From IMG/VR virus record IMGVR_UViG_3300037110_000132: a stretch of 48,349 nt of DNA. One strand, 5' to 3'. The notes under the pieces were generated by a model, which saw nothing but the letters and a program-made list of their open reading frames with translations, ran no database searches and was not told where the DNA came from. Shown in pieces: positions 14,492-36,008 of the stretch (positions within the stretch are counted from its first letter, which is position 1; each line of letters starts with the position of its first letter). Made by a program: the position numbers and the translations under genes. The stretch comes from a virus.

Positions 14492-14743
14492 ATGTCTTTT
14501 AAAACAATCTGGAAATTCTTGTTTGAGAGAGAACTTACTCATCATACTGGAGTGTGGGTCAGAAGATACCAGTGTAAATGTGGGAACCTGGAAGAATGGG
14601 CACACATGACTAGGGTATGTCAGGAATGTGGATATACGGATTCATTTGAGGAAGTCTCAGGAAGGTATGAATGGGATAGAAAAGGGAGTAAAATCCTCAA
14701 TCAAGTGTTTATTCTACATCCAGCGATGAGGGAGAAGAAATGA
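14492..14743 (+). CDS. Small Cys-rich zinc-ribbon protein
   Basis: 83-aa ORF with CKCGN...CQECGY. Confidence 0.5.
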   Translation: MSFKTIWKFLFERELTHHTGVWVRRYQCKCGNLEEWAHMTRVCQECGYTDSFEEVSGRYEWDRKGSKILNQVFILHPAMREKK

Positions 14744-14889
14744 GTATCGAAAATGCTGATCCTGTCGAATTGATTGATGGCCTATGGTATTACTGGGATG
14801 AGGTATGGTGCGATTGTTATGGTCCCTTCGCTACCGAAGAAATCGCACGTGAGGAATTACGCCAGTATTGTGTAGCGGAGGGGCTGTGA
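14740..14889 (+). CDS. Small hypothetical protein (49 aa)
   Basis: ATGA overlap with the upstream stop. Shine-Dalgarno gagggagaag. Below the ORF-track size cut-off. Confidence 0.4.
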   Translation: MSIENADPVELIDGLWYYWDEVWCDCYGPFATEEIAREELRQYCVAEGL

Positions 14890-15290
14890 CTAACAAGGAG
14901 GTCCTCGATCTGATCCTCGCCACTAAATCTAGAGAAGATGATCCCAGCTACGAGAACATGGATGTCTTTGTGGAATTTCTTGACTCCATCCTTGACGGTA
15001 TGCCGCTACCTTCCATTGATCGTCCTGCCATCTATCCCCACGAGTATCAGCCTTGGCTCACTAAGATGGAACAGTTTTTGGATGAGTTCATGGCAGTGGA
15101 CCCTCATCTCAGTTATTGGTTTGCTTGGATGCCTTATCGATCCTTGCTGAAGAGAGAGCGGGGTGGACCCTCCAAATGGTGTGTTTTCGTGGATGCTCAT
15201 GACGCGAAAGTCGAAAGAGAATTTCCAGAGGAACGTTGGCCGAAATTGAAAATTGCCTGGAGCAAAAATGAGAATAGAATTTCTGAATGA
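14886..15290 (+). CDS. Hypothetical protein (GTG start suggested; the ORF track uses TTG at 14868)
   Basis: In-frame GTG preceded by gcggagggg. Confidence 0.45.
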   Translation: MTNKEVLDLILATKSREDDPSYENMDVFVEFLDSILDGMPLPSIDRPAIYPHEYQPWLTKMEQFLDEFMAVDPHLSYWFAWMPYRSLLKRERGGPSKWCVFVDAHDAKVEREFPEERWPKLKIAWSKNENRISE

Positions 15291-15606
15291 GAGATTAATT
15301 GAACAGCAGGGTCTAACAGAGGCTGAGGTCTTAATCCTGGTAGAACTCCATGAGGAACGGGAGAGAATTTTTGATTTGATGACTGACACTGATGATCCTG
15401 ATCTCCTTCAGGAGTTAGCTGCCAAGGTGGAGACTGTGGAGTTTGCCCTCCAGAGGACCTGGAAATTTCCAGAAGATAGTAATTGGCATTGTTGGTGGTA
15501 TCAGGTGCCCAAGTGTTGCTGTCCCAAGCTCGACAACGCGGATAGATGGGGAACTAAGTATCGAATCTTCAATGGTAATTGCCCAGTTCATAGGATGAAA
15601 TCATGA
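15268..15606 (+). CDS. Hypothetical protein
   Basis: ATG at 15268 with Shine-Dalgarno ggagcaaaa. Acidic. CCCP Cys cluster. Confidence 0.5.
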   Translation: MRIEFLNERLIEQQGLTEAEVLILVELHEERERIFDLMTDTDDPDLLQELAAKVETVEFALQRTWKFPEDSNWHCWWYQVPKCCCPKLDNADRWGTKYRIFNGNCPVHRMKS

Positions 15607-16013
15607 TTATTTTCTTGCGTGACAAAAAAGGTAAAACTGTCGCTGAAGTTGAAATCACTAGACAGACTGGTGAGATTACGGGACCAGTGAGATCAGAATC
15701 CTATGATCTTCGAGAGCGAGAGCGTAGTAGGACTGGAGTGATCGCTGATATCGTAAAAGATCTTCATGTATCCATTAATATTCTTGAATATTCCAGGCTG
15801 CTCCTCAGGGTAATTGGCAAAGACCCAGGTGTTCTCTTTAACATCGCAATTCATCAGTTGATTGCGGATTTCTCTGAGTTGGATGAATTGCGAGGGTGGT
15901 ATTGGGAGATGTACTCTATGACCACTAATTCATACAATGAAGTCGTGAAGGAAGTTAGATATCTCTTCAAGATATTGGCCGAGAAATATGAGCTATTCGT
16001 AGTGGAGGACTAA
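15603..16013 (+). CDS. Hypothetical protein
   Basis: 136-aa ORF with ATGA overlap to the upstream gene. Confidence 0.5.
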   Translation: MIIFLRDKKGKTVAEVEITRQTGEITGPVRSESYDLRERERSRTGVIADIVKDLHVSINILEYSRLLLRVIGKDPGVLFNIAIHQLIADFSELDELRGWYWEMYSMTTNSYNEVVKEVRYLFKILAEKYELFVVED

Positions 16014-16014
16014 A

Positions 16015-16308
16015 ATGACGATGATTTTTCTACTGTTTCTCATCGGTTTAACACTCTTTTGTAGTTGGTCTCTTTCGGGATATATTGCAGCACTTCTTGG
16101 CAGGTATTTCCTACCAGAGAATCATCCTATTCGTATTGATAATAGGGAGGAGGCAAAATACGCTACCCTCTGTGGACCAGTTGCCCTCGTTTTGATTGTG
16201 GGTGCAATCATTATTCATAAAACTATTGGGCGCAGACCCCTACAGAGATTAGGGGATTTCTTCTATTCTCATTTTGATCAGCAATCCAAACCTGTTAAAA
16301 ACAAGTAA
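16015..16308 (+). CDS. Small membrane protein
   Basis: Two hydrophobic helices (IFLLFLIGLTLFCSW and LCGPVALVLIVGAIIIH). Confidence 0.5.
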   Translation: MTMIFLLFLIGLTLFCSWSLSGYIAALLGRYFLPENHPIRIDNREEAKYATLCGPVALVLIVGAIIIHKTIGRRPLQRLGDFFYSHFDQQSKPVKNK

Positions 16309-16327
16309 TTCTCACACGGAGAAATTC

Positions 16328-17320
16328 ATGTTGAAGCTAAATAAATCTCTCATCGTGGCAGCGTTATTGCTGATGGTGCCCCTCTTCGCTGGAAAAGGGG
16401 GCGGGGGTGGAAGTTTCAGTTCAGGCTCATCCAGTCGGTCGAGTTCCTTCTCGTCTAGTTCCTCATCGTCCAGGCCGAGCAGCTATTCGAGTCCTTCATC
16501 TTCTTCGAAGTCCAGTGGCTTAAGTTATGGCAGCTTCTCTTCGAAGCCCAGTGCGACTGCCACCGCAAGCAAATCTGGCGGAGGGAGTTTCTCTTCGACC
16601 AGCAAGTCAACTGCTTCGACTCCTTCCCAGCAAGCATGGGTGAGATCTCAGCAGTCCACTCAGGCTGCTGCCCAGTCCAAGGCTTCCTTGGCCCAGTTCA
16701 AGACCGCTTCCGTACCTCCCCCTTCGGCCAAGGTCGCTGCATCCCCAGTGTTCAGCAGGGTCTACACGACATCTGGTGGTACTTCCGCTCCACGTGTTAC
16801 CTACAACACTTATGTGATTCAGCGGCAGGGCTACTACAGCAGCTATCATCCCAATCCTTACGTCTATAATTACCGGCCCAGTTATGGTGCCTGGGATGCG
16901 ATGTTCATGTGGATGATGCTGGACAACATGAACAGCCAGATGTATTACAACCATCGCAATGACGCCGATTACCAGCAGTGGAGAATCGATGCCAACAAAC
17001 AGGCTCAGACTGACGCTGCGGTAGCGGCCAAATTGGCAGATATGGACGCCAAGGTGAAGGCTCTGGAGGCTGCCAAGACCCCAGTTGATCCTGCCTACAT
17101 GCCCCAGGGAGTTGATCCCAGTATCGCCATGGCCCCCGATTTTGCTGCGGCAAATCTGACTCAGGAAGCTCCTGTTTCAGAACCTGCGCCAGAAGCCTCA
17201 GGTGTCAATGGATGGGTAGTCGCAGTGATCATTGCCCTCACCATTGGTATTATCGCCTTGGGCATCTATATTGTCAATCGCCCTCATCGTGGTCCTTATA
17301 AATCCCGTTACGATCTGTAG
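16328..17320 (+). CDS. Secreted or membrane-anchored protein with a Ser-rich low-complexity region
   Basis: ATG with Shine-Dalgarno acggaga. Signal peptide LIVAALLLMVPLFAG, a long poly-Ser/Gly tract, and a C-terminal TM helix WVVAVIIALTIGIIALGIYIV. Confidence 0.55.
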   Translation: MLKLNKSLIVAALLLMVPLFAGKGGGGGSFSSGSSSRSSSFSSSSSSSRPSSYSSPSSSSKSSGLSYGSFSSKPSATATASKSGGGSFSSTSKSTASTPSQQAWVRSQQSTQAAAQSKASLAQFKTASVPPPSAKVAASPVFSRVYTTSGGTSAPRVTYNTYVIQRQGYYSSYHPNPYVYNYRPSYGAWDAMFMWMMLDNMNSQMYYNHRNDADYQQWRIDANKQAQTDAAVAAKLADMDAKVKALEAAKTPVDPAYMPQGVDPSIAMAPDFAAANLTQEAPVSEPAPEASGVNGWVVAVIIALTIGIIALGIYIVNRPHRGPYKSRYDL

Positions 17321-17328
17321 AGGGAATC

Positions 17329-18096
17329 ATGGACTTTCATTTTTTCTCAAAACCGAAGGTAACTGAGTTTGAGTTGGTCACATTGATCTCTGATGGTGAG
17401 AAGTGGGAAATAGAGCGTAAGGATGCTCATCTGCCCAAGGGTCTAAGAATTGGAGCAATTGCCACTATGCCCGAATCGGTCTTCATCGCGGCTCAGGCTT
17501 TCGGCTCTGTAATTCCCAGTAGAACCGGTGATTTTGGGATCAAGAGCATCAGCGCTATTCACGTGCCGTTAGTGCCAGGAATGAAGGTCTATCGAGCCTA
17601 CCTCACCGTCTGTGGTGATAATGACAACTGCAGTTTCATTCAGGCCACTGTTCAAATCAGGGAAGAAACGTCTGATAAAGTGGAGAAGTTGATCGAACTA
17701 GCTTACTTCACGACTGTCTTTACTGACTACCCATCCAGTGAAGAAGATTGGAACAACTACCTTGGAGAAGAAGGAATTGGTTCCATTAACTTCACTGATA
17801 ACGATGGTCATGAATACCATCGGGTCACTGGCAGGGGGGAACATTGCAGATGTCTTACCGCTGAAGAGAAGGGAATCATCACCCCGGCTGGTGATAAGGG
17901 CTGGGCCTCTGAACTCAGTTTCCATGTTTACGAACGAGAGCTTCAAGATGGATCACCGGAATTCTGCACCATCGAAGTGTTCGAAGTCAAAAGCAGCAAT
18001 GTTATGAACGAAGAATCAGGTGGTGTCCGATTCATGGTCGGAATTCCTTTACCCCTTGATATCGTTCTCATCCAAACCAACTCCATCAGGAGCTAA
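17329..18096 (+). CDS. Hypothetical protein
   Basis: 255-aa ORF. Confidence 0.5.
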   Translation: MDFHFFSKPKVTEFELVTLISDGEKWEIERKDAHLPKGLRIGAIATMPESVFIAAQAFGSVIPSRTGDFGIKSISAIHVPLVPGMKVYRAYLTVCGDNDNCSFIQATVQIREETSDKVEKLIELAYFTTVFTDYPSSEEDWNNYLGEEGIGSINFTDNDGHEYHRVTGRGEHCRCLTAEEKGIITPAGDKGWASELSFHVYERELQDGSPEFCTIEVFEVKSSNVMNEESGGVRFMVGIPLPLDIVLIQTNSIRS

Positions 18097-18097
18097 C

Positions 18098-18823
18098 ATG
18101 TCGTTCAAGAAGCTGTTTGCAATGCTCACCGGCCAGGGTCAGGCCGCGATTGATAGCGCCACCATGGCGCTTGAGGCCGCGAATCCTGAGGTCGCCATCA
18201 AGGTCGACAAGCAGGAGATCGAGGACAACCTCCGCACCATCGCTATCTCTCTGGCCCAGGCTGAAGAGAAGCTGAAGGCTGAAGAAGCTGAAGTCGTGGT
18301 GACCCAGGCCAAGATCGACAAGGACCTGAAGGCCGCTGAGATTCTGATTGGCCAGGGTAACGAGGACAAGGCTAATATCCTCATGTCCGAAGTGGAGAAG
18401 CTGAAGAACACCATGGCCCACGAGAAGCGTGAGCGGGATTCTGCCCTGCTGATCGTCAAGAACTTCCACGAAGCCAAGGACAAGCTGCTCAAGACCCTCA
18501 ACGAATATGACGAGAAGTCTAGTGAGGTCGTCAGTGTCCTCCAGGAAGCCAAGTCGGAGAGGGAATCGGCCAAGGCCATTCGTGAATCCGAAGCCCTGTC
18601 CAGTAGTCAGACCAATCTGACCAACGTCAATTCTTCGCTGGCTTCCATGACCGCCATGGCTGCGAAACTCCGCGCCCAGGCTGATGTGGATCGCACCATG
18701 ACCGATCTCAACAAGCCGGTCGCTGAGAAAGATTCCGATATCGCTGCGGCTCTGGCCCAGGTCGAAACCGGAAGTGCAACAAAAGAAACCGCTACGGAAC
18801 GCCTTGCGCGTCTTCGTGGCTAG
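18098..18823 (+). CDS. PspA/IM30-like coiled-coil protein (tentative)
   Basis: Shine-Dalgarno caggagc. N-terminus MSFKKLFAMLTGQ...ALEAANPE resembles the PspA/Vipp1 start. Extended K/E-rich coiled coil. GC-rich. Confidence 0.35.
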   Translation: MSFKKLFAMLTGQGQAAIDSATMALEAANPEVAIKVDKQEIEDNLRTIAISLAQAEEKLKAEEAEVVVTQAKIDKDLKAAEILIGQGNEDKANILMSEVEKLKNTMAHEKRERDSALLIVKNFHEAKDKLLKTLNEYDEKSSEVVSVLQEAKSERESAKAIRESEALSSSQTNLTNVNSSLASMTAMAAKLRAQADVDRTMTDLNKPVAEKDSDIAAALAQVETGSATKETATERLARLRG

Positions 18824-22287: not shown

Positions 22288-22404
22288 AGGGGTATAGCTC
22301 AGTTGGTCAGAGCGTCTGGCTTATCACTTTCCATGAAGTTGGTGGTTCGTGCAAAGTATTCCACACCCAGAAGGTCGTAAGTTCGAGCCTTACTGCCCCT
22401 ACCA
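22288..22404 (+). tRNA. tRNA, probably Val(TAC), interrupted by a 40-nt insertion in the anticodon loop
   Basis: Acceptor aggggta/tgcccct. D-arm gctc-agttggtca-gagc. Perfect anticodon stem tctgg/ccaga spanning 47 nt. T-arm gtaag-ttcgagc-cttac. CCA encoded. Loop ctT|ACac is obtained if the insert sits between 34 and 35. Confidence 0.6.
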
Positions 22405-22510
22405 GTTTCTGCCCATCATTTAAAGAAGTCCTAATGATGGGCAGAAAATTTATAAAGGATGATAGAGGTTATCAATTCGAGGACTTCCAACCAGCACATT
22501 ACTATTATCG

Positions 22511-22519
22511 TGCTATACT
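22511..22519 (+). promoter_or_regulatory. Extended -10 promoter cgTGcTATACT for the prkA operon
   Basis: The 11-mer cgtgctatact is identical to that at 8271-8281. A taggagaacc Shine-Dalgarno and the ATG at 22547 follow. Confidence 0.5.
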
Positions 22520-22546
22520 GCAGGTATCACTTAGGAGAACCATCCG

Positions 22547-24469
22547 ATGGCATTAATGGATCGTTATCAGAATCGCCAGATCAGTTCCAAGAAAGAAGAA
22601 TTAACTCTACAGGAATACCTGGATCTCTGCAAAGCCGACCCAACCACCTACGCCAATGTAGCAGAGCGGATGCTAATGGCCATTGGTGAACCCGAAGTAA
22701 TCGATACTCACCTGACTGACAGGAATTCCAGGATCTTCGCTAACAAGATGATCAGGGTCTATCCCGCTTTCAAGGACTTTTATGGCATGGAAGAAGTGAT
22801 TGAGTCTATCGTCGCATATTTCCGACATGCTGCTCAGGGGTTGGAAGAGAAGAAACAGATCCTTTATCTTCTCGGTCCTGTCGGTGGTGGTAAGTCCTCC
22901 CTGGCCGAGGGCCTTAAGTATCTGCTCCAAAAGGTCCCGTTCTTTGCCATTAAGGGTTCTCCCGTCAATGAGTCACCCCTTGGGCTATTTGATGTGGTGA
23001 ACGATGCCAAGGCGTTAGAAGAGGAATATGGCATTCCCAGTCGGTATCTTGGTAGTATTTTGAGTCCTTGGGCGGTCAAGCGTCTGGAAGAGTTTGATGG
23101 TGATATCTCCAAGTTCAAGATCATCAAGCTTTTCCCTTCTACCTTGTCTCAGGTCGCTATCTCCAAGACGGAACCCGGAGATGAAAACAACCAGGATATT
23201 TCTTCACTGGTTGGCAAGGTTGACATCAGGAAGCTGGAAAAGTACAGCCAAAATGATACCGATGCTTATTCTTACTCCGGTGGTCTGTGCCTATCTAATC
23301 AGGGCATCTTGGAATTCGTTGAGATGTTCAAGGCTCCGATTAAAGTACTGCACCCTCTGCTGACTGCTACCCAAGAAGGAAACTACAAGGGAACTGAGGG
23401 CTTTGGTGCTATTCCGTTCAACGGTTTAGTCCTGGCTCACTCAAATGAAGCTGAGTGGCAGACGTTCAGAAATAACAAAAACAACGAAGCCTTCCTGGAC
23501 CGCATCTACATTGTCAAGGTTCCTTATAGCCTTCGTTTCACTGATGAAACTAGAATCTATCAGAAGCTGCTGGATAACTCTAGCTTGAGCGCAGCACCCT
23601 GCGCTCCTGATACCCTCAAGATGCTGGCCCAGTTCTCTGTCCTCTCTAGACTAAAGGTTCCAGAAAATTCCAGCGTCTTCAGTAAGATGAGGATCTATGA
23701 TGGTGAGAACCTCAAGGATATCGATCCCAAGGCAAAGAGCTATCAGGAATACAAGGACTTTGCTGGTGTGGATGAGGGAATGATCGGTCTGTCCACCCGG
23801 TTCGCCTTCAAGATTCTGTCCAAGGTGTTCAACTATGACCACAATGAGATCGCTGCCAATCCAGTCCATCTCATGTACATCCTGGAGACTCAGATCGGAC
23901 AGATGCAATTCCCGACTGCCACTGAGGACATGTATCGCAAGTACATCAAGGAGTACCTCTCACCCAAATACGCGGAATTCATTGGCAAAGAGATCCAGAC
24001 TGCATACCTCGAAAGCTATGGTGAGTATGGACAGAATATCTTCGATCGCTATGTGGTCTATGCTGACTTCTGGATCCAGGATCAGGAATTCAGAGATCCC
24101 AACACTGGCGAGATGCTGGACCGGGCTGCGCTCAACGAGGAACTGGAAAAGATCGAGAAACCAGCTGGTATCTCTAATCCGAAGGACTTCCGTAATGAGG
24201 TAGTCACATTCGCACTCAGAGCGAAAGCCAAGCACGAGGGCAAGAACCCTTTGTGGACCTCTTATGAGAAACTCCGTGCAGTAATCGAGAAGAAGATGTT
24301 CTCTAATACTGAGGAATTGCTCCCTGTCATTTCCTTCAACACCAAGGCAAGCGCGGACGATCAGAAGAAACACAAAGACTTCTTGGACCGGATGATCGCT
24401 AGGGGTTACACTGAGAAGCAAGTCCGTCTGCTGTGTGACTGGTACCTGCGCGTAAGGAAATCTTCATGA
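22547..24469 (+). CDS. prkA: PrkA/YeaG family serine protein kinase (AAA+ N-domain)
   Basis: 640 aa. The N-terminus aligns with E. coli YeaG (TLQEYL...YANAAERLLMAIGEP...YPAFEEFYGMEDAIEQIV...AAQGLEEKKQILYLLGPVGGGKSSLAE). Walker A motif GPVGGGKS. Confidence 0.85.
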   Translation: MALMDRYQNRQISSKKEELTLQEYLDLCKADPTTYANVAERMLMAIGEPEVIDTHLTDRNSRIFANKMIRVYPAFKDFYGMEEVIESIVAYFRHAAQGLEEKKQILYLLGPVGGGKSSLAEGLKYLLQKVPFFAIKGSPVNESPLGLFDVVNDAKALEEEYGIPSRYLGSILSPWAVKRLEEFDGDISKFKIIKLFPSTLSQVAISKTEPGDENNQDISSLVGKVDIRKLEKYSQNDTDAYSYSGGLCLSNQGILEFVEMFKAPIKVLHPLLTATQEGNYKGTEGFGAIPFNGLVLAHSNEAEWQTFRNNKNNEAFLDRIYIVKVPYSLRFTDETRIYQKLLDNSSLSAAPCAPDTLKMLAQFSVLSRLKVPENSSVFSKMRIYDGENLKDIDPKAKSYQEYKDFAGVDEGMIGLSTRFAFKILSKVFNYDHNEIAANPVHLMYILETQIGQMQFPTATEDMYRKYIKEYLSPKYAEFIGKEIQTAYLESYGEYGQNIFDRYVVYADFWIQDQEFRDPNTGEMLDRAALNEELEKIEKPAGISNPKDFRNEVVTFALRAKAKHEGKNPLWTSYEKLRAVIEKKMFSNTEELLPVISFNTKASADDQKKHKDFLDRMIARGYTEKQVRLLCDWYLRVRKSS

Positions 24470-25698
24470 TCATTGATCGAAGATCGGATAGCAAGCATAA
24501 AAGCTCCGTTAACCGAAGTAGATTCATCCAACGCTTTAAAGGCCAGATCAAGAAAGCTGTCTCTGATACAATCAACAAGGACAGCATCAAAGATCTGGCT
24601 GGCAAGAAGATTGGGATTTCCAATAGAAGCATCAAGGAACCACGATTCAGGACTGGGCCTGGAGGGATATCAGAGGATGTCCATCCAGGTAATGATAAAT
24701 ATCATTCAGGTGAAGAAGTAGAAAGGCCCTATGGCGATGATGGCATGGGATCTAGCGCCAGTCCTGATGGAGAGGGTATGGACGAATTCGTCTTCACCCT
24801 TTCTAGAGAAGAATTCCTGGATATCTTCTTTGAGGAACTGGCACTTCCTAATCTGACTAAGAAGTATTTGGCCAGTTTAAAGGAATTCAAGCGGGTAAGG
24901 GCTGGGATTAGTAATGCCGGAACTCCTAATAATATCAATCTCGTCCGGACTTTCAGGAGCGCCACAGGCCGAAGGGTAGCCATCGGTGGTCCTTATGCCA
25001 CTGAATTAGCAGAATTAGAGGAGAAACTAGCTGAAGTCACAGATGAAGAAGAATTCACATTCCTAACAGAAGAAATAGAGAGGGTCAGGACTCGGATTAG
25101 TCACATTCCCTGGATTGATACCTTCGACCTCCGGTATAATTATCATGATAAGGTTCCTCAGCCTTCGGCTCAGGCTGTTATGTTCTGCTTGATGGATGTA
25201 TCTGGATCAATGGACGAGGAGAAGAAGAACATCGCTAAGCGATTCTTCACCCTCTTATATCTGTTTTTGACTCGTACCTACGAGAAAACTGATATCGTCT
25301 TCATTCGCCATCATGTTCATGCCGAAGAAGTGGATGAGGATACTTTCTTCCATTCTCAGGAAACAGGTGGAACTATTGTTTCCTCAGCATTGAAGCTGAT
25401 GCTCCAAATCATCGAAGAGCGTTACAACAACGGTCAATGGAACATCTATGGTGCACAGGCTTCAGATGGTGACAATTGGTTCGAAGATTCCAATGGGTGT
25501 ATTCAGCTATTGGAAGATCAAATTCTTAAGTTGGTCCAGTATTTCGCGTATGTAGAGATTGCTGAGCGCCCACAAAGCTTGTGGGTTGAATATGAATCAA
25601 TCACGCCGAAATATGAAGGGCTGTTTGCGATCAGACGGATTAATAGCGCGGCTGATATCTATCCAGTGTTCTGTGATCTCTTTAAGAAGCACGAGTAA
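24466..25698 (+). CDS. yeaH: YeaH/YhbH (DUF444) vWA-like protein
   Basis: 410 aa. Stop/start overlap with prkA. MIDAS-type DVSGSMDE motif. Canonical partner of PrkA. Confidence 0.75.
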   Translation: MIIDRRSDSKHKSSVNRSRFIQRFKGQIKKAVSDTINKDSIKDLAGKKIGISNRSIKEPRFRTGPGGISEDVHPGNDKYHSGEEVERPYGDDGMGSSASPDGEGMDEFVFTLSREEFLDIFFEELALPNLTKKYLASLKEFKRVRAGISNAGTPNNINLVRTFRSATGRRVAIGGPYATELAELEEKLAEVTDEEEFTFLTEEIERVRTRISHIPWIDTFDLRYNYHDKVPQPSAQAVMFCLMDVSGSMDEEKKNIAKRFFTLLYLFLTRTYEKTDIVFIRHHVHAEEVDEDTFFHSQETGGTIVSSALKLMLQIIEERYNNGQWNIYGAQASDGDNWFEDSNGCIQLLEDQILKLVQYFAYVEIAERPQSLWVEYESITPKYEGLFAIRRINSAADIYPVFCDLFKKHE

Positions 25699-25700
25699 CT

Positions 25701-27224
25701 ATGCGACAGAAAAAGCCCAAGCTCCCAAAGCTCCCCACCCCTCTCCCCACCGGCTCTGAATGGAGCTTTGATTCCATTCAGGCTTTTGATGATGCATGCA
25801 AGAAGGTAGCGGATAGATTCTCATTGGATTCCTATCCTCACCAGCTTGAAATCATCAGTGCTGAGCAGATGATGGATGCCTATGCGAGCATTGGTATGCC
25901 AGTGTTCTATCATCACTGGTCTTTTGGTAAATCCTTCCTAGCCACGGAGAATAAATATAAACGTGGCTACATGGGCTTGGCATACGAGATCGTGATCAAC
26001 TCAGATCCCTGCATTGCCTACCTAATGGAAGAGAACACCCTGACAATGCAAGCACTCGTCATTGCCCATGCCGCATATGGTCATAATAGCTTTTTCAAGG
26101 GCAACCACTTGTTCAAGCAGTGGACCAGTCCAGATTCTATCATCGACTATCTGGTCTTCGCTAAGAATTTCATCACGGAATGTGAAGAAAAATATGGTCA
26201 AGAGACAGTAGAGAAGATGTTAGATGCTTGCCATGCCCTGATGAATCTTGGTGTGGATAGACACAGACGCGCTCCTAAGCTCTCAATGGTGAAAGAGAAG
26301 CTTCGTCAGAAGGAACGTGAGGAATATCTACAGTCACAGGTCAATGAGCTTTGGAAGACTTTACCTTTCCAGTCCAAGAAGGAAGAAGGAAATACAGAGA
26401 AGTTTCCTAAGGAACCAGAGGAGAACGTCCTCTATTTCATCGAGAAGAATGCTCCCCTCCTGGAACCCTGGCAACGAGAAATTATCAGGATTGTCCGTAA
26501 GATCGCACAATACTTCCACCCTCAGAAGCAAACTCAGCTAATGAACGAAGGGTGGGCATGTTTCTGGCACTATAAGATTCTGAACACATTATATGACGAT
26601 AATTTGGTCGGTGATGGGTTCATGCTTGAGTTCCTACAGTCCCATACAAATGTCTGTTATCAACCAGCCTATAGTAGCAAATGGTATTCGGGAATTAGTC
26701 CCTATGCCTTTGGTTTTGCAATGTGGCAAGATATTAAGCGGATTTGCGAGAAGCCAACAAAAGAGGATTCTGAATGGTTCCCTAGCATCGCAGGATCAGA
26801 CTGGCGTGAGACACTTGAGTTCGCTATGAACAATTTCAAGGATGAGAGTTTTGTCTCCCAGTATCTCTCTCCAAAGATGATGAGAGATTTCCATTTATTC
26901 TCTGTGCTAGACGATGATGAGGAAGAAGATCTCATTATCGGCCCAATCCATGATGAGGTTGGTTACTATGGATTGCGTCAGAGATTGTCGGATCAATACA
27001 ACCTGGGCAGTCGTGAACCAAATATTCAGGTTTGGAATCTGGATAAGCGTGGAGATCGGACTCTGACCCTGAGATATTTCAGCTACCATCGGAAACCCCT
27101 TTACAAAGATTTCATTGATGTTGTGAAATACACCGCTTATCTCTGGGGCTTCCCAGTTGCCCTGGAAGAGCAAGATGAAACGGGCTTCGTGGACTTCTTG
27201 GGGATGGAAACTCCTGAAATTTGA
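25701..27224 (+). CDS. spoVR: SpoVR/YcgB family protein
   Basis: 507 aa. Third member of the conserved prkA-yeaH-spoVR triad. Assignment rests on size, operon context and conserved blocks such as YHHWSFGKSF and EGWACFWHYKIL. Confidence 0.7.
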   Translation: MRQKKPKLPKLPTPLPTGSEWSFDSIQAFDDACKKVADRFSLDSYPHQLEIISAEQMMDAYASIGMPVFYHHWSFGKSFLATENKYKRGYMGLAYEIVINSDPCIAYLMEENTLTMQALVIAHAAYGHNSFFKGNHLFKQWTSPDSIIDYLVFAKNFITECEEKYGQETVEKMLDACHALMNLGVDRHRRAPKLSMVKEKLRQKEREEYLQSQVNELWKTLPFQSKKEEGNTEKFPKEPEENVLYFIEKNAPLLEPWQREIIRIVRKIAQYFHPQKQTQLMNEGWACFWHYKILNTLYDDNLVGDGFMLEFLQSHTNVCYQPAYSSKWYSGISPYAFGFAMWQDIKRICEKPTKEDSEWFPSIAGSDWRETLEFAMNNFKDESFVSQYLSPKMMRDFHLFSVLDDDEEEDLIIGPIHDEVGYYGLRQRLSDQYNLGSREPNIQVWNLDKRGDRTLTLRYFSYHRKPLYKDFIDVVKYTAYLWGFPVALEEQDETGFVDFLGMETPEI

Positions 27225-27266
27225 CACCAAGTCGTCCCGGTGTTATCCTAAAGCAGGAGAACTCCA

Positions 27267-28010
27267 ATGATGAATTCGTTTGACTTCGAAGAGGAATCAG
27301 CTAAACATGATGCGATTGTGGCCGCGATGACTCCGTTCGACAAGATCAAGAAGATCAAGAGGAACAATCTCCAATTGATGAAGATGGATAGATACTTGGA
27401 GAAGAAAGTTTCCAGGATTCTCAAGGACTACTTCAAGAAGCCCCTGGATCAGCGTGTTATTTATATCACCAATTATGAGATGATTCACCGCTCTGATTGC
27501 TTTGAAACTCATCCAGGGGCCGTCGTCACTCATACTTCGGATATCTTGGTCAATGGTAGTAGCTATTATTGTGCTATCTGTGGCTATTACATTAGCACCC
27601 ATGAGGGCTGTGGTTCCTGCGATGTGATGATGAGGATCCCTTATTCCCTGTGGGAGCGAGTCTATTCCTGCTTCAGTCAGCTACAATACCTCACTGAGGG
27701 CTGGAAGTGGTTTCGAAAACGATTCTACTGGCTACCCAAACGGGGTTACCATTGGTTCTTCGAAGTCGATGATATCAGCCATTCCTATTTCAACCTGGAA
27801 CTGAAGCCTGATCATGACGGGGATACATGGCTTGAGCGGGATCTCAAGTATATGCTGTCCCGCAGCACTTTCGAATCTGATATCCGCTGGATCGGCACCC
27901 TGCCCGATGGCCTGGGAGAGAAGGACCTGGAAGATGCTGTGAAATGCTGGTTCAAGGACCGGTATGACCTTGAAATTAACGTCAAGTGGGTCCCGAACGA
28001 TCTTGACTAA
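27267..28010 (+). CDS. Hypothetical Cys/Trp-rich protein
   Basis: 247-aa ORF with Shine-Dalgarno aggaga. Motif CAICGYYISTHEGCGSC. Confidence 0.5.
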   Translation: MMNSFDFEEESAKHDAIVAAMTPFDKIKKIKRNNLQLMKMDRYLEKKVSRILKDYFKKPLDQRVIYITNYEMIHRSDCFETHPGAVVTHTSDILVNGSSYYCAICGYYISTHEGCGSCDVMMRIPYSLWERVYSCFSQLQYLTEGWKWFRKRFYWLPKRGYHWFFEVDDISHSYFNLELKPDHDGDTWLERDLKYMLSRSTFESDIRWIGTLPDGLGEKDLEDAVKCWFKDRYDLEINVKWVPNDLD

Positions 28011-29467
28011 AGAATACTTGTGTTAGAAGTCGTGTTGTGGTATAATTTTTTCGGATAAGGCTAACGCCGAATCCCGCTCCCCCGCCAGGGTGCGACTGGT
28101 GTAATCCTGGTGGGTGTAGGTCCGGGGGAGTCAACAAATCTTCCCCGGACCACCGAGATCCTTGACAACTTGGCATGCAGAGATTGTAAGATTAGGATCA
28201 CGAGCCTATTCAAAGCCTTGCGTTGAAGCTATAAACCGACCTGCGAGGGTCTGTTCTTGGTCTGAGTCGATGGAGGGGGCAACTCCTGAGAAATTGGCAA
28301 CATGATACGCGGAGACTAAAAAGGATCTTACTTGTGGAGATATAATCGCCACCTGGACCTAAAAAATCTAGAAATGGATTTGCGTTTCACCGCAACGTGG
28401 GCGGTGCAACTTCCGGTATAAGCTAGCGATAGTGAAGCTGGAGGCCATGATGGTTGAGGGAGAGCCATCTGCTAGGCTACGGTTTGTTGGCTTGTTGCCG
28501 TAGTAAAAGATAGCCTAAAACCAACACCCATTCGGTCTTGCTAACCGGGTGGTTTCGATGGGACCGGCATGAAGGCCGATCACAGCCAGTCATCAGAGCG
28601 CCCTTAGAGCCTGTGGCAAAGAGCCTGAAAGTTAGGCCGCGCCGGTAAAGCAGGATTGGGTGCAATTTCGGAAAAGAACAACTTGGAATCGCCGGGAAAC
28701 CGGAGTCCGCAAAGAGGCCGATGGACTGAGATACTGGTGATGCCCCTGGAAGCATCAAAGGGAATGGAGCGTGGAGCATAAGGGAGATCTAATACAAGCC
28801 CGAAAGCTGTGAAACAATCCATCTGATCTAGACTCACCCTTTGACGCTGGATGACTCCTGATAGATTAGGTGCATCTCAATTTGATATCAGGATAAGCGA
28901 AGAATTCTGGACCCAGCGGATGAATTCGTCGAAAACCCCCTATGCAGTGACATGGGATGGTTGCAGGTATGAGAAACCTGATACTTTCAGTTGAGAAAGA
29001 CTGGATTACTTACACGTGGTAAAGAACGTGAGGTCCTGGACACGCTTGAATTTGCTAAGGGCGTGGATGCGGTGAGCCAGGATGCTGGGGAGAGGGTACC
29101 AGCAGGGGTGAAGTTTCGCATTGACTCCTTAGTCCTTCTTAGGATAAGCTGCGAGATAGGGTGATGATTTCCCTAGACGAATGGACGAGGAATAAGACGC
29201 TGAGTCCAGAAACTATAATCCGGTGCTCGATCTTCCGCCGTGAGTGGAGATCCGGTAATTGAGACACCCTCCTCGTAAATAGGGAATCTCCGGTGACAAT
29301 GAGAACTAACGCCATCAGGAAACATCGTCCAGTTCTACAGTCAGCTGCTACACCGGTAGTTTCGCCTCATAAGGTGCATGCTGGTTACGCTGCGAAATGT
29401 TGACGTCTTGACCGAGGGCATGAGGTCATGCAAATTGAGGGGGAGCCTAAAAACTCCCCCTCAATAT
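28011..29467. ncRNA. Candidate large structured non-coding RNA (1.45 kb ORF-free region)
   Basis: No ORF of 60 aa or more on the + strand, in an otherwise gene-dense window. Contains a 9-bp perfect hairpin ggtccgggg/ccccggacc (28119-28151), a hairpin tgatgc/gcatca (28735-28754) and several GNRA-type tetraloop hairpins. Confidence 0.3.
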
Positions 29468-30805
29468 TTATATATGAACGAGTGGAGCAAATCTATCTTG
29501 TCCGTCATAATATTCAGTAAACCCAAGTTCTTTAGCTCTCTTTATAAGAGTAGCCTTATCCTCATTAGCTCCTCTTAACTGCAAATCTCTATAAGTCTCG
29601 CTGGCAAACAAAACATACCAAGGGCGCTTGGAAGCTTTTAGATTCTCATAGATAAAACATTCCACCACAAATTTTTTTATCTTGATCTTGATTGGTAGTT
29701 TCTTGCCTCTAGGCTTAATATAGTTTTCAGATTCTCCAATGAAACCCCCAGGCCATTCTCCATTGATAACTGCTCCATTAATGAGTTTTATCCCATCGAA
29801 CCCAACTGAGAACCAACTCCATATTAGTTCGATTGCAGCGTTCTCAAATTCGCATTGAATTCCATTTGGTAATTCATACCAACCATCTACTTCTTTGTAT
29901 CCATAATCACCCTTTGTGAATTTCTGTAATCCCAGAGGATCTTTCGGCATATTGTTGGTTTCTAGGGTCTTCCCGGTTAGTGCATGCACTGCTTTTGCGA
30001 AAGGCCCTCTTAATTGTCCTGACACTTTATGATATAGCTCAAATTCGTCTTCTAATTTATATTTGTTGTTCAATGCTTTCTGAAGAGGAAATGCCATTTC
30101 ATGATATTTATTGTCAAAATGATCCCAAATGCTCCCATTATGATGGCAGACATCATAAGCATGGTCTATGGCGATTACCTTTTCTATTAAACTGTTTGCG
30201 GATAACAACCTCTTATATCCTGGTACCACCTGCAAGTACCAAGGATCTTTCTCTCCTCCCATGGACAAGTATTCATGGACAGTCTCACAAAATAGTAATC
30301 CCTTGTTTCCCAAAAGTTTTAATTGGGCTTTTATATTATTATCCTGAATGTTCGCTCGTTCTTCTTGGATTTCCTTAGCCTTTTCAGGGTCTTTGGTATA
30401 TAGAACCGGAGACAGATCAGGTAAAGGTTTAATAGTATTTTTATCAAATAATAATTCGTAATTTGGGAACACTTTAGAGACTTTGGCTAAACCTCTACGA
30501 CGTTTCTCTTCTAGTCTTTCCGTTATTTCCTTTGTAGCACATTCAGTATGTTGCATCGCATCTTTTAATTCATCAATTGCTCTCCAATAAACCGCTTGCT
30601 TGAAATTCTCCAAAAGATCCCGATGAAGGTAATCAATCAATTTCTCTTCTGCATCTTTGACGTAAGACTCTAGGTCAATATCTAGTTCTTTAGCCCTATG
30701 AGTAACTAAAGATAAAGCGTAAAAATCGTACAAACACAAAATCGGGTCCTTCGGAATCTCGTAGGACCGAGAAGATGCAATTTTAGCCTTCAGATATAAT
30801 TTCAC
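29468..30805 (-). CDS. Hypothetical protein (445 aa) with the N-terminal leader MKLYLKAKIASS
   Basis: Minus strand, AT-rich. N-terminus matches the leader family. Confidence 0.6.
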   Translation of the reverse strand: MKLYLKAKIASSRSYEIPKDPILCLYDFYALSLVTHRAKELDIDLESYVKDAEEKLIDYLHRDLLENFKQAVYWRAIDELKDAMQHTECATKEITERLEEKRRRGLAKVSKVFPNYELLFDKNTIKPLPDLSPVLYTKDPEKAKEIQEERANIQDNNIKAQLKLLGNKGLLFCETVHEYLSMGGEKDPWYLQVVPGYKRLLSANSLIEKVIAIDHAYDVCHHNGSIWDHFDNKYHEMAFPLQKALNNKYKLEDEFELYHKVSGQLRGPFAKAVHALTGKTLETNNMPKDPLGLQKFTKGDYGYKEVDGWYELPNGIQCEFENAAIELIWSWFSVGFDGIKLINGAVINGEWPGGFIGESENYIKPRGKKLPIKIKIKKFVVECFIYENLKASKRPWYVLFASETYRDLQLRGANEDKATLIKRAKELGFTEYYDGQDRFAPLVHI

Positions 30806-30979
30806 AAGTTCCTCTAAATTTCATTTTAACATTTGAGTGATATACTTGGATAAGGAGGTCAGATTTATGGATTTCATTGAGAAGCGTAAACACAAACATT
30901 TTAGACTCCTCTTCATTAGCTTCCATGATTTATGGATTAGACATATCAAACCAGATATTTACTCGGCTTTCTCTGATCA

Positions 30980-32023
30980 CTAAATCTTTTTCTTTCGTGG
31001 ATTCTTTTCGTGTTGTCCAGCCCAAAGTTCATCAAAGATCTTCTCGATTCTGCCAGTAACTAATAGATCTAGGAATTCTCTCTTTGAGCTATTTTTAATA
31101 TCAAATTGGAAAGTATCACAAGGTCTATGATCACTATTATTCCATTTGTTGTATTCACACTGGAAATGATCGGGGTCAAGGATAGCAAGAGACAGATTGC
31201 CACCTTTATTGGGTAAATCAAAGCTCCAGCCGGGGTCGCTATTCCAGGTTTTATGGGGTGTCCCACCACCGAATTTTTGAGATAATTTTTCACCCAATTT
31301 CTTCATTTCCCTTTTGATTAGTGCATCAATTTGGAGGCCCTCTTGCCCTCCCCACTCTCCGAATAACTTACAAATTTCCACAGGGTAGGAACCGCCTTTA
31401 AGCAGATATTCCTTCTGGTGGAATCTCACAATATGATCCAGGATCTCATCCGGGAGGTCCGACATAGCAATACCAATTTGGTCGGGTGTGACGGTAGTCT
31501 TTAGGATCACCCCCAGAGAATCTGGGTCCCGACCCACAATAGAGAAGGTGCCTGCAAACTGTTCAGCAATTTCTGGGTTTGAACTCCAAGATTGCACCTT
31601 GAGGGTCTTATAGATCCCAGTACTCCCTACTTGAGGATCTTTGATACCCAATTTCTTCATGAAAGGAGCACCATTGATGGATTTGAAACCTAAGCCTCTA
31701 TAGAGGACTATTGGCTGGGTTGGGCAGAAGCGTTCGAAATAGGGAAAGATGTCCTTGTCAACGATCTTGCCTGCGTTGTTGTTATATCGATTTAGTTCTT
31801 CTGCGGCCCAAGTAGGGATTTTGTTATCTCTTAGATAATTTTCATAATTTTCTCTGATTTGGCTCTGGACCTTGCGATATTGACGATCAATTTTTTCCGT
31901 CTTGGAATTTTCATCCCAACTGTTGACTCCCCGTGCTCGCTCCTCGTCATTGACCCTGATGTACTCCTCCCTCAATTTAGTGAGTTTATCACGTAGAGGA
32001 CCAGCTATCATGGTTAGTTTCAT
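30980..32023 (-). CDS. Putative ADP-ribosyltransferase (R-S-E type), 347 aa
   Basis: Motifs VLYRGLGF, VQSWSSNPEIAEQFA and HQKEYLLKGG (Q-x-E). N-terminus MKLTMIAGPL is weakly leader-like. Confidence 0.55.
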   Translation of the reverse strand: MKLTMIAGPLRDKLTKLREEYIRVNDEERARGVNSWDENSKTEKIDRQYRKVQSQIRENYENYLRDNKIPTWAAEELNRYNNNAGKIVDKDIFPYFERFCPTQPIVLYRGLGFKSINGAPFMKKLGIKDPQVGSTGIYKTLKVQSWSSNPEIAEQFAGTFSIVGRDPDSLGVILKTTVTPDQIGIAMSDLPDEILDHIVRFHQKEYLLKGGSYPVEICKLFGEWGGQEGLQIDALIKREMKKLGEKLSQKFGGGTPHKTWNSDPGWSFDLPNKGGNLSLAILDPDHFQCEYNKWNNSDHRPCDTFQFDIKNSSKREFLDLLVTGRIEKIFDELWAGQHEKNPRKKKI

Positions 32024-32401
32024 ACAATCATCCCATTTAATTTTAACCTGAATGGATGGAGTTAATATTTAATAAATTCAGGTTATAATTAAAACACTGG
32101 GATTTAGGCTAGTTGGCAAACCTGAGGACTCTGACTCCTCCATCCTCCGTTCAAACCGGAGAGTCCCAACCAAAACGAGGGGTTCATGTGGCCCATAAAT
32201 CAACTCCCAAATTACACCTCCATTGAACCAACGAAATCCACAAAGGTCATTATTCCTGTTGGCAAGGTGGAGAAAGCGAATTGCCAGTCTTTTAATCCGG
32301 ATAGTCTTATTGGCCTCATCATTGATATTTGGGGTTAAAATGAAAAAGATCAAAATTACCGCTATCGGGCACACTACCTGACCGACGAGGACTTTGCGAC
32401 G

Positions 32402-32662
32402 ATGCAACTGGAAATGATGGCGAATCCGGAAATGGGCGATGTGATTGAAAATACGGGCGGTCTCAGAAAGCTGAGGCAACCGGATCCCAAGCGAGGGAAA
32501 GGGAAACGCGGCGGTCTGCGGGTGATCTACTACTGGTGGGAATCGGGTCGGCAGTTCTGGCTGTTCACCCTCTATAACAAGGATGAGGTCAGTGACCTGA
32601 CCGCCCAGGAGCGCAAGGCTTTCAAGGGAATGCTGAAGCGGGAACTTGAGGTGCGACGATGA
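32402..32662 (+). CDS. Type II toxin, RelE/HigB superfamily
   Basis: GGLRKLR...GKGKRGGLRVIYYW...LFTLYNKDEVSDLT signature. GC-rich. 4-bp overlap with the downstream antitoxin. Confidence 0.6.
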   Translation: MQLEMMANPEMGDVIENTGGLRKLRQPDPKRGKGKRGGLRVIYYWWESGRQFWLFTLYNKDEVSDLTAQERKAFKGMLKRELEVRR

Positions 32663-33012
32663 AGAAGCGGAATCTGTTCGAGGAAATCCAGGAGGGTTTC
32701 GAGGCCTTGGCCGAGGCGAGGGCTGGGAAGCTAACCTTGCGCACCCATCGCGTGGAGATGGCTGCCGTGTCTGAGGTAACTCCCGGCGAAGTGCTTGCTC
32801 TGCGTGAGAAGCTGAACCTGTCGCGTGCCGTGTTCGCCCGCTATCTGCGAACCAACCCCCGGACCGTCGAGAACTGGGAACAGGGTCGGGTCCATCCCAA
32901 CGCCCAAGCCAGCCTATTATTGCAGAAAAGCAGAAGACCATCTTTGGGATTAGAATCCCTTTTTTGGTGGTATTCCTGCGAAATCGAAATTGAGGACGAT
33001 TTATCCCTCTAA
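32659..33012 (+). CDS. HTH (XRE/HigA-like) antitoxin
   Basis: Helix-turn-helix LSRAVFARYLRTNPRTVENWEQGR. Translationally coupled to the upstream toxin. Confidence 0.6.
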   Translation: MKKRNLFEEIQEGFEALAEARAGKLTLRTHRVEMAAVSEVTPGEVLALREKLNLSRAVFARYLRTNPRTVENWEQGRVHPNAQASLLLQKSRRPSLGLESLFWWYSCEIEIEDDLSL

Positions 33013-33130: not shown

Positions 33131-33276
33131 CTTCCTATGGCGGATTGGTAGACGCAGCGGACTTTTCGGGGATGGAGAGAAACATCCCCACCATATCGTG
33201 AGGTCTTGAGGGACCCACACAGGAAAAATCCGCCGCCCGAAAAGGCGTTCCGGTTCGACTCCGGATAGGAAGACCA
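33131..33276 (+). tRNA. Class II tRNA, probably Leu(TAA), interrupted by a ~60-nt insertion in the anticodon loop
   Basis: Perfect acceptor cttccta/taggaag. Perfect anticodon stem gcgga/tccgc spanning 67 nt. Variable-arm hairpin cgcc-cgaaaa-ggcg. T-arm tccgg-ttcgact-ccgga. CCA encoded. Loop ctT|AAaa is obtained if the insert sits between 34 and 35. Confidence 0.6.
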
Positions 33277-34905: not shown

Positions 34906-35271
34906 ATGAAAGCAAAAGACCTGCTCAACAAAGAGATCTCTTGGACTGAGGAGTTCGATCCTTATCAGGGGATTTATACAACTAAATCGGGCCGAGTGGT
35001 TGCGGCCCAGGGCAGGAACATCATGGTAGATGGCAATTGGTTGTGGCTTCCGAGTCTTCGTAGGATCAAGGCGATAAGTTATACCTTCACCATCGAAGAA
35101 CCAACCATTAAGTATCAGGTCGTTCACAGTCTGAACAAGAACATTGAATCCCTTAATGTGGTTGCTGACGAGAGAATCACCATTCATGAAGAGGAACAGG
35201 ACCATAAGGATCCAAATTGGGTGCAAATTACCACCTATGTGCCCCATACAACGATCAAAATTTTCAGCTGA
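34906..35271 (+). CDS. Hypothetical protein
   Basis: 121-aa ORF starting 1 nt after the panD stop. Confidence 0.5.
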   Translation: MKAKDLLNKEISWTEEFDPYQGIYTTKSGRVVAAQGRNIMVDGNWLWLPSLRRIKAISYTFTIEEPTIKYQVVHSLNKNIESLNVVADERITIHEEEQDHKDPNWVQITTYVPHTTIKIFS

Positions 35272-35279
35272 GGTATACT

Positions 35280-36008
35280 ATGGACAGAGATAAGAAATAC
35301 GAAACCCATCCTTCGTTCGGTATGATCAGCTTCTCTCGCATCCACAGTGGTGGCAAGGGACCCCGGCTGTTCCAGTCTTTCACCGATAATAGCACCTTTA
35401 TTAGTTGCAAAATCAAAGGGGCCGAAGTCGGTCATGATCTTGGCCGTGATTGGGTCCATGGCAATAAGACCATGATCGAGGTTTATATCTCGGCTTCCCA
35501 GTTCGCTGAGCTTCTGACCTCAATGAATATTGGGGATGGGGTTCCCTGTACCATCAAACAGGTCGCTGGCGTGGAAATTCCCAAGGCTCCGCTTTGTGAA
35601 ACAGTGGCGTCTAAGGTCCGCAATACTTTCAAGAACGAAGTGAAAGACAAGATCAACGATCTCCAGAAAGTGGCCAAGGAGATCGAAACAATGCTGGCTG
35701 GTTCCAAGCTGAGCAAGGAGAATCAGAAACAATTGAACTGGAAAATTCAGGAGTTGGCTGGTTTGTTCTCCGATCACGCCCCATTCATGCTTGATTCGTT
35801 CGAAGAGGCAGTCGAGAAGACTGTCGTCGGGGCCAAGGCTGAATGTGACGCATGGCTCACCCATAATATCATGAGAGCGGGACTTGAAAGTTTGCTGAAT
35901 CAAGCACCCTCGCTCAGTAACAATTCGAATCCCGCTCTGGAGTGCAAGGACGATATCGCGCATGGCCTCTCGCAGGACAGCATCGAGAAGATCATGGGGT
36001 GGGAATGA
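35280..36008 (+). CDS. Hypothetical protein
   Basis: ATG at 35280 preceded by gaggtatact. The ORF track starts at 35217. Confidence 0.5.
   Translation: MDRDKKYETHPSFGMISFSRIHSGGKGPRLFQSFTDNSTFISCKIKGAEVGHDLGRDWVHGNKTMIEVYISASQFAELLTSMNIGDGVPCTIKQVAGVEIPKAPLCETVASKVRNTFKNEVKDKINDLQKVAKEIETMLAGSKLSKENQKQLNWKIQELAGLFSDHAPFMLDSFEEAVEKTVVGAKAECDAWLTHNIMRAGLESLLNQAPSLSNNSNPALECKDDIAHGLSQDSIEKIMGWE

Follow-up and report, generated by a model that had tools for sequence, protein, structure and literature searches.

Few stress modules of bacteria are conserved as widely as the operon yeaG-yeaH-ycgB, also known as prkA-yhbH-spoVR, the mechanism of which is unsolved. Here we analyse a complete copy of this trio, prkA-yeaH-spoVR, in IMG/VR virus record IMGVR_UViG_3300037110_000132, an entire metagenomic contig of 48,349 bp to which we refer as the window. 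A preliminary description, made from the sequence without database searches, presented the trio as a conserved stress-kinase triad within a tRNA-rich, phage-like region. The unity of the triad is well founded, given that the three genes display conserved cofitness in six bacteria; the mutant phenotypes vary by species, with the utilization of amino acids for nitrogen or carbon at their centre (10.1101/072470). In Escherichia coli, yeaG is induced by NtrC and by many stresses, and its product, reported as a kinase, is required for survival of sustained nitrogen starvation via the rpoS programme, limiting the metabolically active subpopulation (PMC4664914). The Bacillus subtilis PrkA showed no kinase activity and instead displayed ATP-dependent, Lon-like protease activity in vitro; it is needed for sporulation, and the Walker A lysine K108 is essential for the ATPase activity, the protease activity and sporulation alike (PMC9512850). 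The PrkA of B. anthracis showed neither activity, although it is required for sporulation and for osmotic-stress tolerance (PMC13001217). The 'Ser kinase' label of the preliminary description is therefore contested, and 'stress kinase' is more accurately replaced by an AAA+ ATPase-centred starvation/differentiation module with unsolved biochemistry.

Phage copies of the trio are already present in GenBank (in phiYS40, RsoM2USA and several huge phages), so the novelty implied in the preliminary description is overstated: the window is a further example of a known but neglected phage trio, not a new kind of system. In the literature searched, no paper combines PrkA with viral auxiliary metabolic genes (AMGs), and neither the huge-phage paper, in its main text, nor a comparative review of jumbo phages mentions the trio. 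The RsoM2USA paper lists PrkA and SpoVR in tables only and leaves the middle gene unannotated, whereas in a marine oxygen-minimum-zone virome, spoVR is the most abundant 'sporulation AMG' (PMC8940887). Thus, the phage auxiliary-gene literature searched has largely overlooked the trio, which surfaces there only in annotation tables and in a count of 'sporulation AMGs'. The contig analysed here is a clear-cut case for which the donor lineage can be identified.

The trio and its bacterial origin

The trio consists of three adjacent, co-oriented genes, in the order that is found also in 139 comparison loci:

22547..24469, + strand: prkA/yeaG, 640 amino acids (aa), AAA+ ATPase with a C-terminal PrkA kinase-like domain
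24466..25698, + strand: yeaH (DUF444), 410 aa, von Willebrand factor A (vWA)-like protein with a putative metal ion-dependent adhesion site (MIDAS) motif
25701..27224, + strand: spoVR/ycgB, 507 aa

The identification of the products as PrkA/YeaG, YeaH and SpoVR/YcgB is borne out by full-length Pfam matches. In PrkA, residues 20-376 match AAA_PrkA (PF08298, profile positions 2-358 of 358, 3e-171) and residues 379-632 match the C-terminal domain (PF06798, positions 2-255 of 255, 2e-65). YeaH matches DUF444 (UPF0229, PF04285) over its full length (residues 2-408, profile positions 2-417 of 418, 2.7e-164), and SpoVR matches PF04293 (1.5e-170) and SpoVR_C (PF24755, 3.3e-18). PrkA's Walker A motif, GPVGGGKS, is intact (residues 110-117) and aligns with GPVGSAKS of a solved PrkA homologue, 9xip (solved as 9xip, 9xiq and 9xir; E 6e-53); we found no solved relatives of YeaH or SpoVR. 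The MIDAS-type residues of YeaH (D244-x-S246-x-S248, T303 and D334/D336) are invariant among 21 diverse bacterial and phage homologues, and 13 of these 21 family members show weak matches to VWA_2 (best E 0.022). A profile of the 21 YeaH sequences, run against PDB sequences, recovered no vWA chain, only noise from coiled coils, for example, syntaxin. An AlphaFold2 model of SpoVR, based on 30 homologues that are 67-74% identical, was too poor for a fold search (predicted local distance difference test score 49.7, predicted template modelling score 0.36).

Constrained positions are almost completely preserved in all three proteins. When near-invariant sites are defined as the alignment columns with at least 97% conservation in 79 bacterial homologues, the window retains 352 of 358 such sites in PrkA, 110 of 113 in YeaH and 185 of 197 in SpoVR (98, 97 and 94%, respectively). 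The genes are tightly packed. Of the overlapping stop and start codons noted in the preliminary description, one pair is present, at the prkA-yeaH junction, where the overlap is 4 nucleotides (nt; ATGA), whereas at the yeaH-spoVR junction, the TAA stop codon is followed by 2 nt and then by ATG, with no overlap. In gene order, strand, protein lengths and domains, the window is the same as the bacterial operons, the closest of which are those of two metagenomic loci, denoted L164 and L163, followed by those of Rhodocyclales and Burkholderiales. The differences lie in the setting, which is metabolic in the bacteria and a phage-like tRNA island in the window; in the GC content, 0.60-0.69 against 0.46; and in the spacers, which in the window have shrunk to -4 and +2 nt. 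A defence-system reading of the trio was considered and rejected: PADLOC yielded only a marginal P-loop match between PrkA and IetA (E 3e-4, 48 residues) and no match for YeaH or SpoVR.

The phylogeny of the three proteins, which the preliminary description had proposed as the way to the donor, places the trio among bacterial operons. The nearest locus, L164, is 85, 65 and 74% identical to the window in PrkA, YeaH and SpoVR, respectively, followed by L163 with 84, 63 and 72%; all other loci reach at most 82, 60 and 71%, and the PrkA copies of Dechloromonas, Azonexus and Geothrix are 81% identical. In L163 and L164, both of which are bacterial, the trio lies among genes for pyruvate formate-lyase, aminotransferase and ABC proteins; altogether, the neighbours of the closest bacterial trios include pyruvate formate-lyase, aminotransferase, glutamate synthase and EF-G genes. 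In a neighbour-joining (NJ) tree of the concatenated alignment, the window is the sister group to L163 and L164, inside a Burkholderiales/Rhodocyclales clade, and both groupings were recovered in 100 of 100 bootstrap replicates on 51 taxa. The branch of the window is modestly longer (mean distance to the outgroups 0.40 vs 0.34). Because all three proteins have the same nearest relatives, the operon appears to have been captured as one unit.

The trio proteins do not by themselves name a donor, given that the identity of PrkA lies at 81-90% throughout Rhodocyclales, Geothrix and the nearest lineage. The ABC-ATPase gene beside the L164 operon is more informative: its product is 92% and 87% identical to proteins of 'Holophaga sp.' metagenome-assembled genomes, and the identity is 83% for Geothrix, 79% for Mesoterricola and approximately 74% for Betaproteobacteria. 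Judging from this single neighbouring gene, the closest carrier known so far probably belongs to the Holophagaceae (Acidobacteriota), with a trio close to the betaproteobacterial ones.

At the DNA level, the transfer was not recent, as indicated by the composition of the trio, which matches the contig and not the nearest bacterial loci: the trio has a GC content of 0.461 and the contig one of 0.464, compared to 0.67-0.69 in L163 and L164, and GC at third codon positions (GC3) is 0.585, 0.462 and 0.514 for prkA, yeaH and spoVR, respectively, compared to 0.49 +/- 0.11 for the other genes of the window. Full codon amelioration combined with near-perfect retention of the constrained sites implies long-term purifying selection inside the phage. 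The trio thus has the appearance of an old, selected capture of a whole bacterial operon.

The carrier contig and the upstream region

The tRNA-rich, phage-like character of the region, as given in the preliminary description, is evident from its gene content. The window encodes about 21 tRNAs, all on the same strand and dispersed among small open reading frames (ORFs), three HNH homing endonucleases, a dCMP deaminase (phrog_174 at 2e-40) and members of phage-only PHROG families, namely, phrog_6452 (7e-42) and phrog_2072. Homologues of phrog_6452 are present in 92 phage records, among them those of two jumbo phages, phiR1-37 and BcepSauron. Phage-family genes flank the trio on both sides (3824-8170 and 35217-47131). 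No housekeeping genes were found in the window, which therefore is not a segment of ordinary bacterial chromosome in a housekeeping context. The 48-kb contig is probably part of a much larger genome. An independent assembly, Logan SRR11596275, reproduces with 100% identity the upstream ORFans (ORFs without detectable homologues), prkA, yeaH and the beginning of spoVR. Near-identical DNA was not detected in 50,697 phage records, and two flanking ORFans have no relatives in IMG/VR.

The only relatives of the carrier that we detected are two contigs of 51-69 kb from Trout Bog Lake, Ga0214219_1000074 (L173) and TBL_comb48_EPIDRAFT_1000077 (L174), which share with the window a syntenic block of three genes (16274-18823) at 36-63% amino-acid identity. 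In the Trout Bog relative, this block is followed by 15 tRNAs, HNH genes, a T4 Rnl1-like RNA ligase and a DNA methyltransferase; the PrkA trio was not found in the 20 kb fetched. An attempt to date the insertion via these relatives was abandoned, since at 36-63% identity, they are too distant to define the insertion site.

The region immediately upstream of prkA contains four features:

22288..22401 (Rfam) or 22288-22404 (ARAGORN -i), + strand: tRNA with an anticodon-loop insert, the upstream boundary of the operon
22406..22447, + strand: 15-bp hairpin between the tRNA and the promoter, similar to a terminator or a processing site, without a U-tract
22508..22519, + strand: predicted extended -10 box TCGTGCTATACT, with no good -35 hexamer upstream
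22533..22537, + strand: Shine-Dalgarno sequence AGGAG, 9 nt 5' of the prkA ATG

Whereas bacterial copies of the operon are preceded by regulatory regions of 250-400 nt, the upstream region of the window copy is 145 nt long and includes an extended -10 box that recurs across the contig. The 9-mer TGCTATACT is located at 22511-22519, and the 12-mer TCGTGCTATACT is found identically at 8270-8281. In the window, TGNTATACT occurs 6 times, against 0.93 expected (none of 100 shuffles reach 6), and the degenerate motif TGNTATAMT occurs 10 times, against 2.2 expected (none of 100 shuffles reach 10). Nine of the 10 TGNTATAMT sites are on the + strand, 15-40 nt 5' of a ribosome-binding site and a start codon, with one of them preceding a non-coding stretch. 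By this consensus argument, the 5' region of the operon belongs to the contig's own family of signals. The preliminary description had claimed both that the same box is used elsewhere in the window and that the module is natively integrated into the transcription program of the element; the recurrence of the 12-mer and the enrichment of the motif family support the former, and the shared motif, together with GC and GC3 values indistinguishable from those of other window genes, is consistent with the latter. A scenario in which a sigma-54/NtrC promoter was replaced by a phage promoter was discarded, given that just 3 of 83 bacterial homologues have a strict -24/-12 element upstream, and the window has none.

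The upstream tRNA, described preliminarily as intron-containing, is recognized as a tRNA with an anticodon-loop insert by both Rfam (59.2 bits, with 43 nt after CUUA replacing 3 nt of the model) and ARAGORN with the intron option (tRNA-Val(TAC), 40-nt insert); the insert is a putative intron. The hairpin that follows has a folding energy of -22.6 kcal/mol (z = -6.4), and none of 200 shuffled sequences was as stable.

Thus, the trio is nested within cellular homologues, is adapted to the genome of its carrier and has viral genes on both sides, as is required of auxiliary viral genes. It is highly probable that a phage-type element here carries a trio that is intact, under selection and derived from a host.

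Recurrence in phages and possible role in infection

The trio recurs in unrelated phages. In RsoM2USA, a cultured Ralstonia jumbo phage (myovirus, 344 kb), prkA-yeaH-spoVR are ORF30-29-28, in the same order as in the window and on a single strand; the products are 56, 37 and 51% identical to those of the window and belong to a separate deep branch, which points to independent acquisition. Among the cultured Thermus phages phiYS40 and TMA (~150 kb), the three families are found together beside the terminase gene, and in phiYS40 the cluster comprises DUF444, SpoVR, a 616-aa ORF and PrkA. Compared to the window, the phiYS40 PrkA is only 27% identical, the gene order is yeaH-spoVR-x-prkA with an extra gene, and YeaH is shorter; PrkA is encoded also by the phiYS40 relatives TMA, phiLo, MN1 and Lalka. 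All three genes are present in the huge phages LR745206 and LR756504 (~635 kb), and at least prkA and yeaH in LR756502. The trios of these three genomes (634-642 kb) and of large IMG/VR contigs resemble that of the window, with PrkA 60-64% identical, whereas their GC content is 0.27-0.32, they belong to other clades, and some have intervening genes or a split SpoVR. In the NJ tree, the other phage copies form several deep branches apart from the window, which accordingly represents an independent capture.

Close relatives of the window PrkA were detected on 218 IMG/VR contigs, and most of the 80 contigs retrieved contain the full trio. Some of these are probably host DNA (for example, L003, with a GC content of 0.58), and many are contigs of 100-360 kb on which the trio lies near tRNA arrays, amber-suppressor tRNAs, tmRNAs and PHROG-family genes. 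A translation-related accessory region of huge phages seems to be its habitual location. The record 'Enterobacter phage LAU1' was not counted as a phage example: its PrkA is 71% identical, YeaG starts at base 1 of the 30.7-kb record, and the sequence looks like host DNA.

Several details of these loci are worth recording. The trio is located within 10 kb of translation-related features in the IMG/VR contigs L012, L015, L048, L059 and L082; L014, L023, L046, L054, L057, L071 and L074; and L022, L036, L041, L062 and L073; the features in question are arrays of up to 22 tRNAs (22 in L048), amber-suppressor tRNA(CTA) and tmRNA genes. LR756504.1 (L171, 636 kb) has extra genes between prkA, yeaH and spoVR, and its SpoVR match (14567-16363) is in two pieces, corresponding to query residues 21-381 and 273-489, which could reflect a partial duplication, an insertion or a frameshift. 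The 616-aa ORF of phiYS40 (L172), at 3923-5773 between SpoVR and PrkA, has no Pfam match and could be a fourth, lineage-specific component.

The scenario that we favour, as somewhat more probable than all the alternatives combined, is that a large phage rich in tRNAs captured the operon as a whole and uses it to steer the starvation response of the host. Under this scenario, a T4-like or jumbo-type phage would have captured prkA-yeaH-spoVR as one unit from a donor related to Holophagaceae or Betaproteobacteria and retained it under purifying selection until its base composition became that of the phage. The extended -10 promoter, of the sigma-70 type, would most likely be transcribed by unmodified host RNA polymerase, the hairpin at 22406..22447 would insulate the operon from the tRNA transcript, and the ATGA overlap and 2-nt spacer would yield one translationally coupled mRNA. 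The phage would thereby supply the full pathway independently of the host's control by starvation signals, and PrkA, YeaH and SpoVR would rebuild or overdrive the host's own pathway, which in bacteria operates as a single unit when cells adapt to starvation and stationary phase. Throughout a long latent period, a nutrient-limited infected cell would then probably be pushed into, or kept in, an RpoS-type maintenance state that is viable and of low heterogeneity, with altered use of nitrogen and amino acids. Such a state would suit a large phage with long latency in oligotrophic water or sediment; the latent period of RsoM2USA is 270 min (PMC8504454). Manipulation of host dormancy or nutrient signalling, as suggested in the preliminary description, can reasonably be inferred by analogy with the bacterial operon, and a specific role in host starvation physiology, taken by itself, has perhaps slightly less than an even chance of being correct.

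The main rival, which we regard as unlikely, holds that the trio serves the phage itself, with PrkA and YeaH acting as a chaperone or protease pair, by analogy with MoxR-vWA systems, on virion or replication proteins or on host factors such as those of defence. PrkA is indeed an AAA+ ATPase, and the B. subtilis protein shows ATP-dependent protease activity in vitro (PMC9512850); YeaH has an invariant, putative MIDAS motif and weak similarity to VWA_2; MoxR-vWA pairs have been proposed as virion-assembly chaperones of jumbo phages (PMC7824862); and the phiYS40 cluster adjoins the terminase gene. The MoxR-type AAA+/vWA pairs (RavA-ViaA, CbbQ-CbbO and MoxR-vWA of jumbo phages) combine an AAA+ gene with a neighbouring MIDAS-bearing, vWA-like partner, as prkA and the putatively MIDAS-bearing yeaH would. 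This is, however, an architectural analogy only: PrkA belongs to an AAA+ family of its own, with a marginal match to AAA_5 (E 0.007), and carries a kinase-like domain at its C-terminus, with SpoVR as an obligatory third partner. Furthermore, retention of 94-98% of the sites that are near-invariant in bacteria better fits an unchanged cellular target, unrelated phages have repeatedly captured the trio from bacteria, and the trio resides in accessory tRNA regions rather than in structural modules, with no structural association in PHROGs. An improbable alternative is that the window is not a phage at all and that a chromosomal island, a megaplasmid or another extrachromosomal element carries its own stress operon. 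The lack of any virion or packaging gene in 48 kb would fit this alternative, as would the cell-like genes for an SPFH/Band_7 protein, a DUF2491 protein, a GNAT protein and a vault-shoulder-like protein; it is countered by the one-strand tRNAs among ORFans, the three HNH genes, the dCMP deaminase and the phage-only families in the absence of housekeeping genes, the syntenic relative with a T4 Rnl1-like ligase and a 15-tRNA island, and a GC content lower by 20 points than in any of the close bacterial homologues.

Quite improbable, too, is a neutral trio, acquired by chance as cargo of a hyperplastic region and playing no role in infection. Its location in an accessory region of tRNAs and homing endonucleases is compatible with this explanation, and so is the distant relative that lacks the trio in the 20 kb fetched around the shared block, whereas three intact ORFs that retain 98, 97 and 94% of the near-invariant sites despite a shift in GC content from ~0.67 to 0.46, the tight coupling of the genes, the phage-type promoter and the retention of the trio in several deep phage clades are not. 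That the contig is an assembly chimera, with a bacterial operon joined to phage DNA, can be dismissed with near certainty: the source is a metagenome and PrkA is 85% identical to a bacterial copy, but the GC and GC3 of the trio agree with those of the genes on either side and lie 20 points away from those of the bacterial homologues, the Logan assembly reproduces the upstream junction, and the promoter 12-mer is shared with another locus of the contig.

The starvation-steering scenario faces difficulties of its own. No capsid, portal, terminase or tail genes were found among the approximately 37 ORFs scanned with Pfam or PHROGs, the sole virion-type match being a weak, partial one to a 'minor head protein' family (ORF 1384-1950, E 1.6e-5); the phage identity of the contig, which rests on context, is strongly supported, short of proof. 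The trees are NJ only and draw their bacterial sample from the best hits, and the gap in GC content to the putative donor lineage, 20 points, is large. The putative promoter is a consensus match only. The activity of PrkA is disputed, with kinase, protease or neither reported (PMC4664914, PMC9512850, PMC13001217), and the direction of the effect on the host is unpredictable from mutant phenotypes that vary among species (10.1101/072470).

A broader and more tentative view, to which we give somewhat less than even odds, is that the trio is a general accessory module with which large phages lock host physiology, repeatedly captured from their hosts. The captures would include those by Thermus phages, the Ralstonia jumbo phage, the 630-kb huge phages, marine and freshwater clades in IMG/VR and the contig analysed here, and the trio, retained over long periods, would be driven by phage promoters to impose or block the starvation-survival programme of the host in long infections of nutrient-limited cells. 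The independent captures by large phages of very different hosts, with conserved sites kept while codons and promoter were rewritten, suggest that the pathway matters for long infection of starving cells, and this repeated capture by large phages is of more interest than the window locus alone. If this view is correct, the phage trios would constitute a new class of regulatory auxiliary genes, and the culturable RsoM2USA or phiYS40 would offer a tractable route into an unsolved bacterial pathway.

Other features of the window

Downstream, the operon is bounded by the following features:

27221..27249, + strand: promoter-like site (TTGACA, 17-nt spacer, TG-TATCCT) that overlaps the spoVR stop codon; 10 of 12 consensus matches, with the upstream TG
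27267..28010, + strand: ORFan outside the trio, the downstream boundary; 247 aa, 7 Cys, two CxxC pairs

The promoter-like site probably serves the ORF that follows it, and no terminator was found between spoVR and this ORF. The ORF had been described as Cys-rich; it does contain two CxxC pairs, but with 7 Cys in 247 aa, it is only modestly so. It has no match in Pfam, PHROG or PADLOC and no homologue beside other trios or in IMG/VR.

In the next approximately 1.45 kb (28011-29468), no + strand ORF exceeds 57 aa, whereas the rest of the contig is densely coding. This stretch contains an extended -10 box, TGGTATAAT, at 28038-28046 and ends with a strong 12-bp terminator (29434-29465). Its predicted fold is more stable than those of shuffled sequences (z = -2.9 and -4.4, 20 shuffles each). 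Rfam gave no match at E<=1, and neither the phage collection nor any of the fetched loci contains similar DNA; the stretch is a candidate for a large structured non-coding RNA.

Anticodon-loop inserts of 37-60 nt are present in four predicted tRNAs: 7527-7639 (Met-CAT), 12941-13080 (Leu-TAG), 22288-22404 (Val-TAC, upstream of the operon) and 33131-33276 (a doubtful Phe). Standard ARAGORN misses the insert-bearing tRNAs, Rfam finds two and ARAGORN with the intron option finds all four. The inserts of the tRNAs at 7527 and 22288 occupy the same position in the loop, and each folds as a hairpin; all the inserts are far below the size of group I introns. An HNH gene (7625-8170, - strand) abuts one of the insert-bearing tRNAs.

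Elsewhere in the window, the SPFH/Band_7 protein is encoded at 13526-14407 and the DUF2491 protein at 17329-18096. The ORF at 36932-39043 (703 aa) shows similarity to the shoulder domain of the major vault protein (PF11978, 8.7e-25) and to the Vault_3 repeat (6e-9), which is unusual on a phage-like contig; it has no PHROG match. The only sizeable block on the opposite strand, 29468-32941 (-), consists of three consecutive ORFs (445, 347 and 287 aa) with no Pfam or PHROG match and a GC content of about 0.40, and may be an inserted island.

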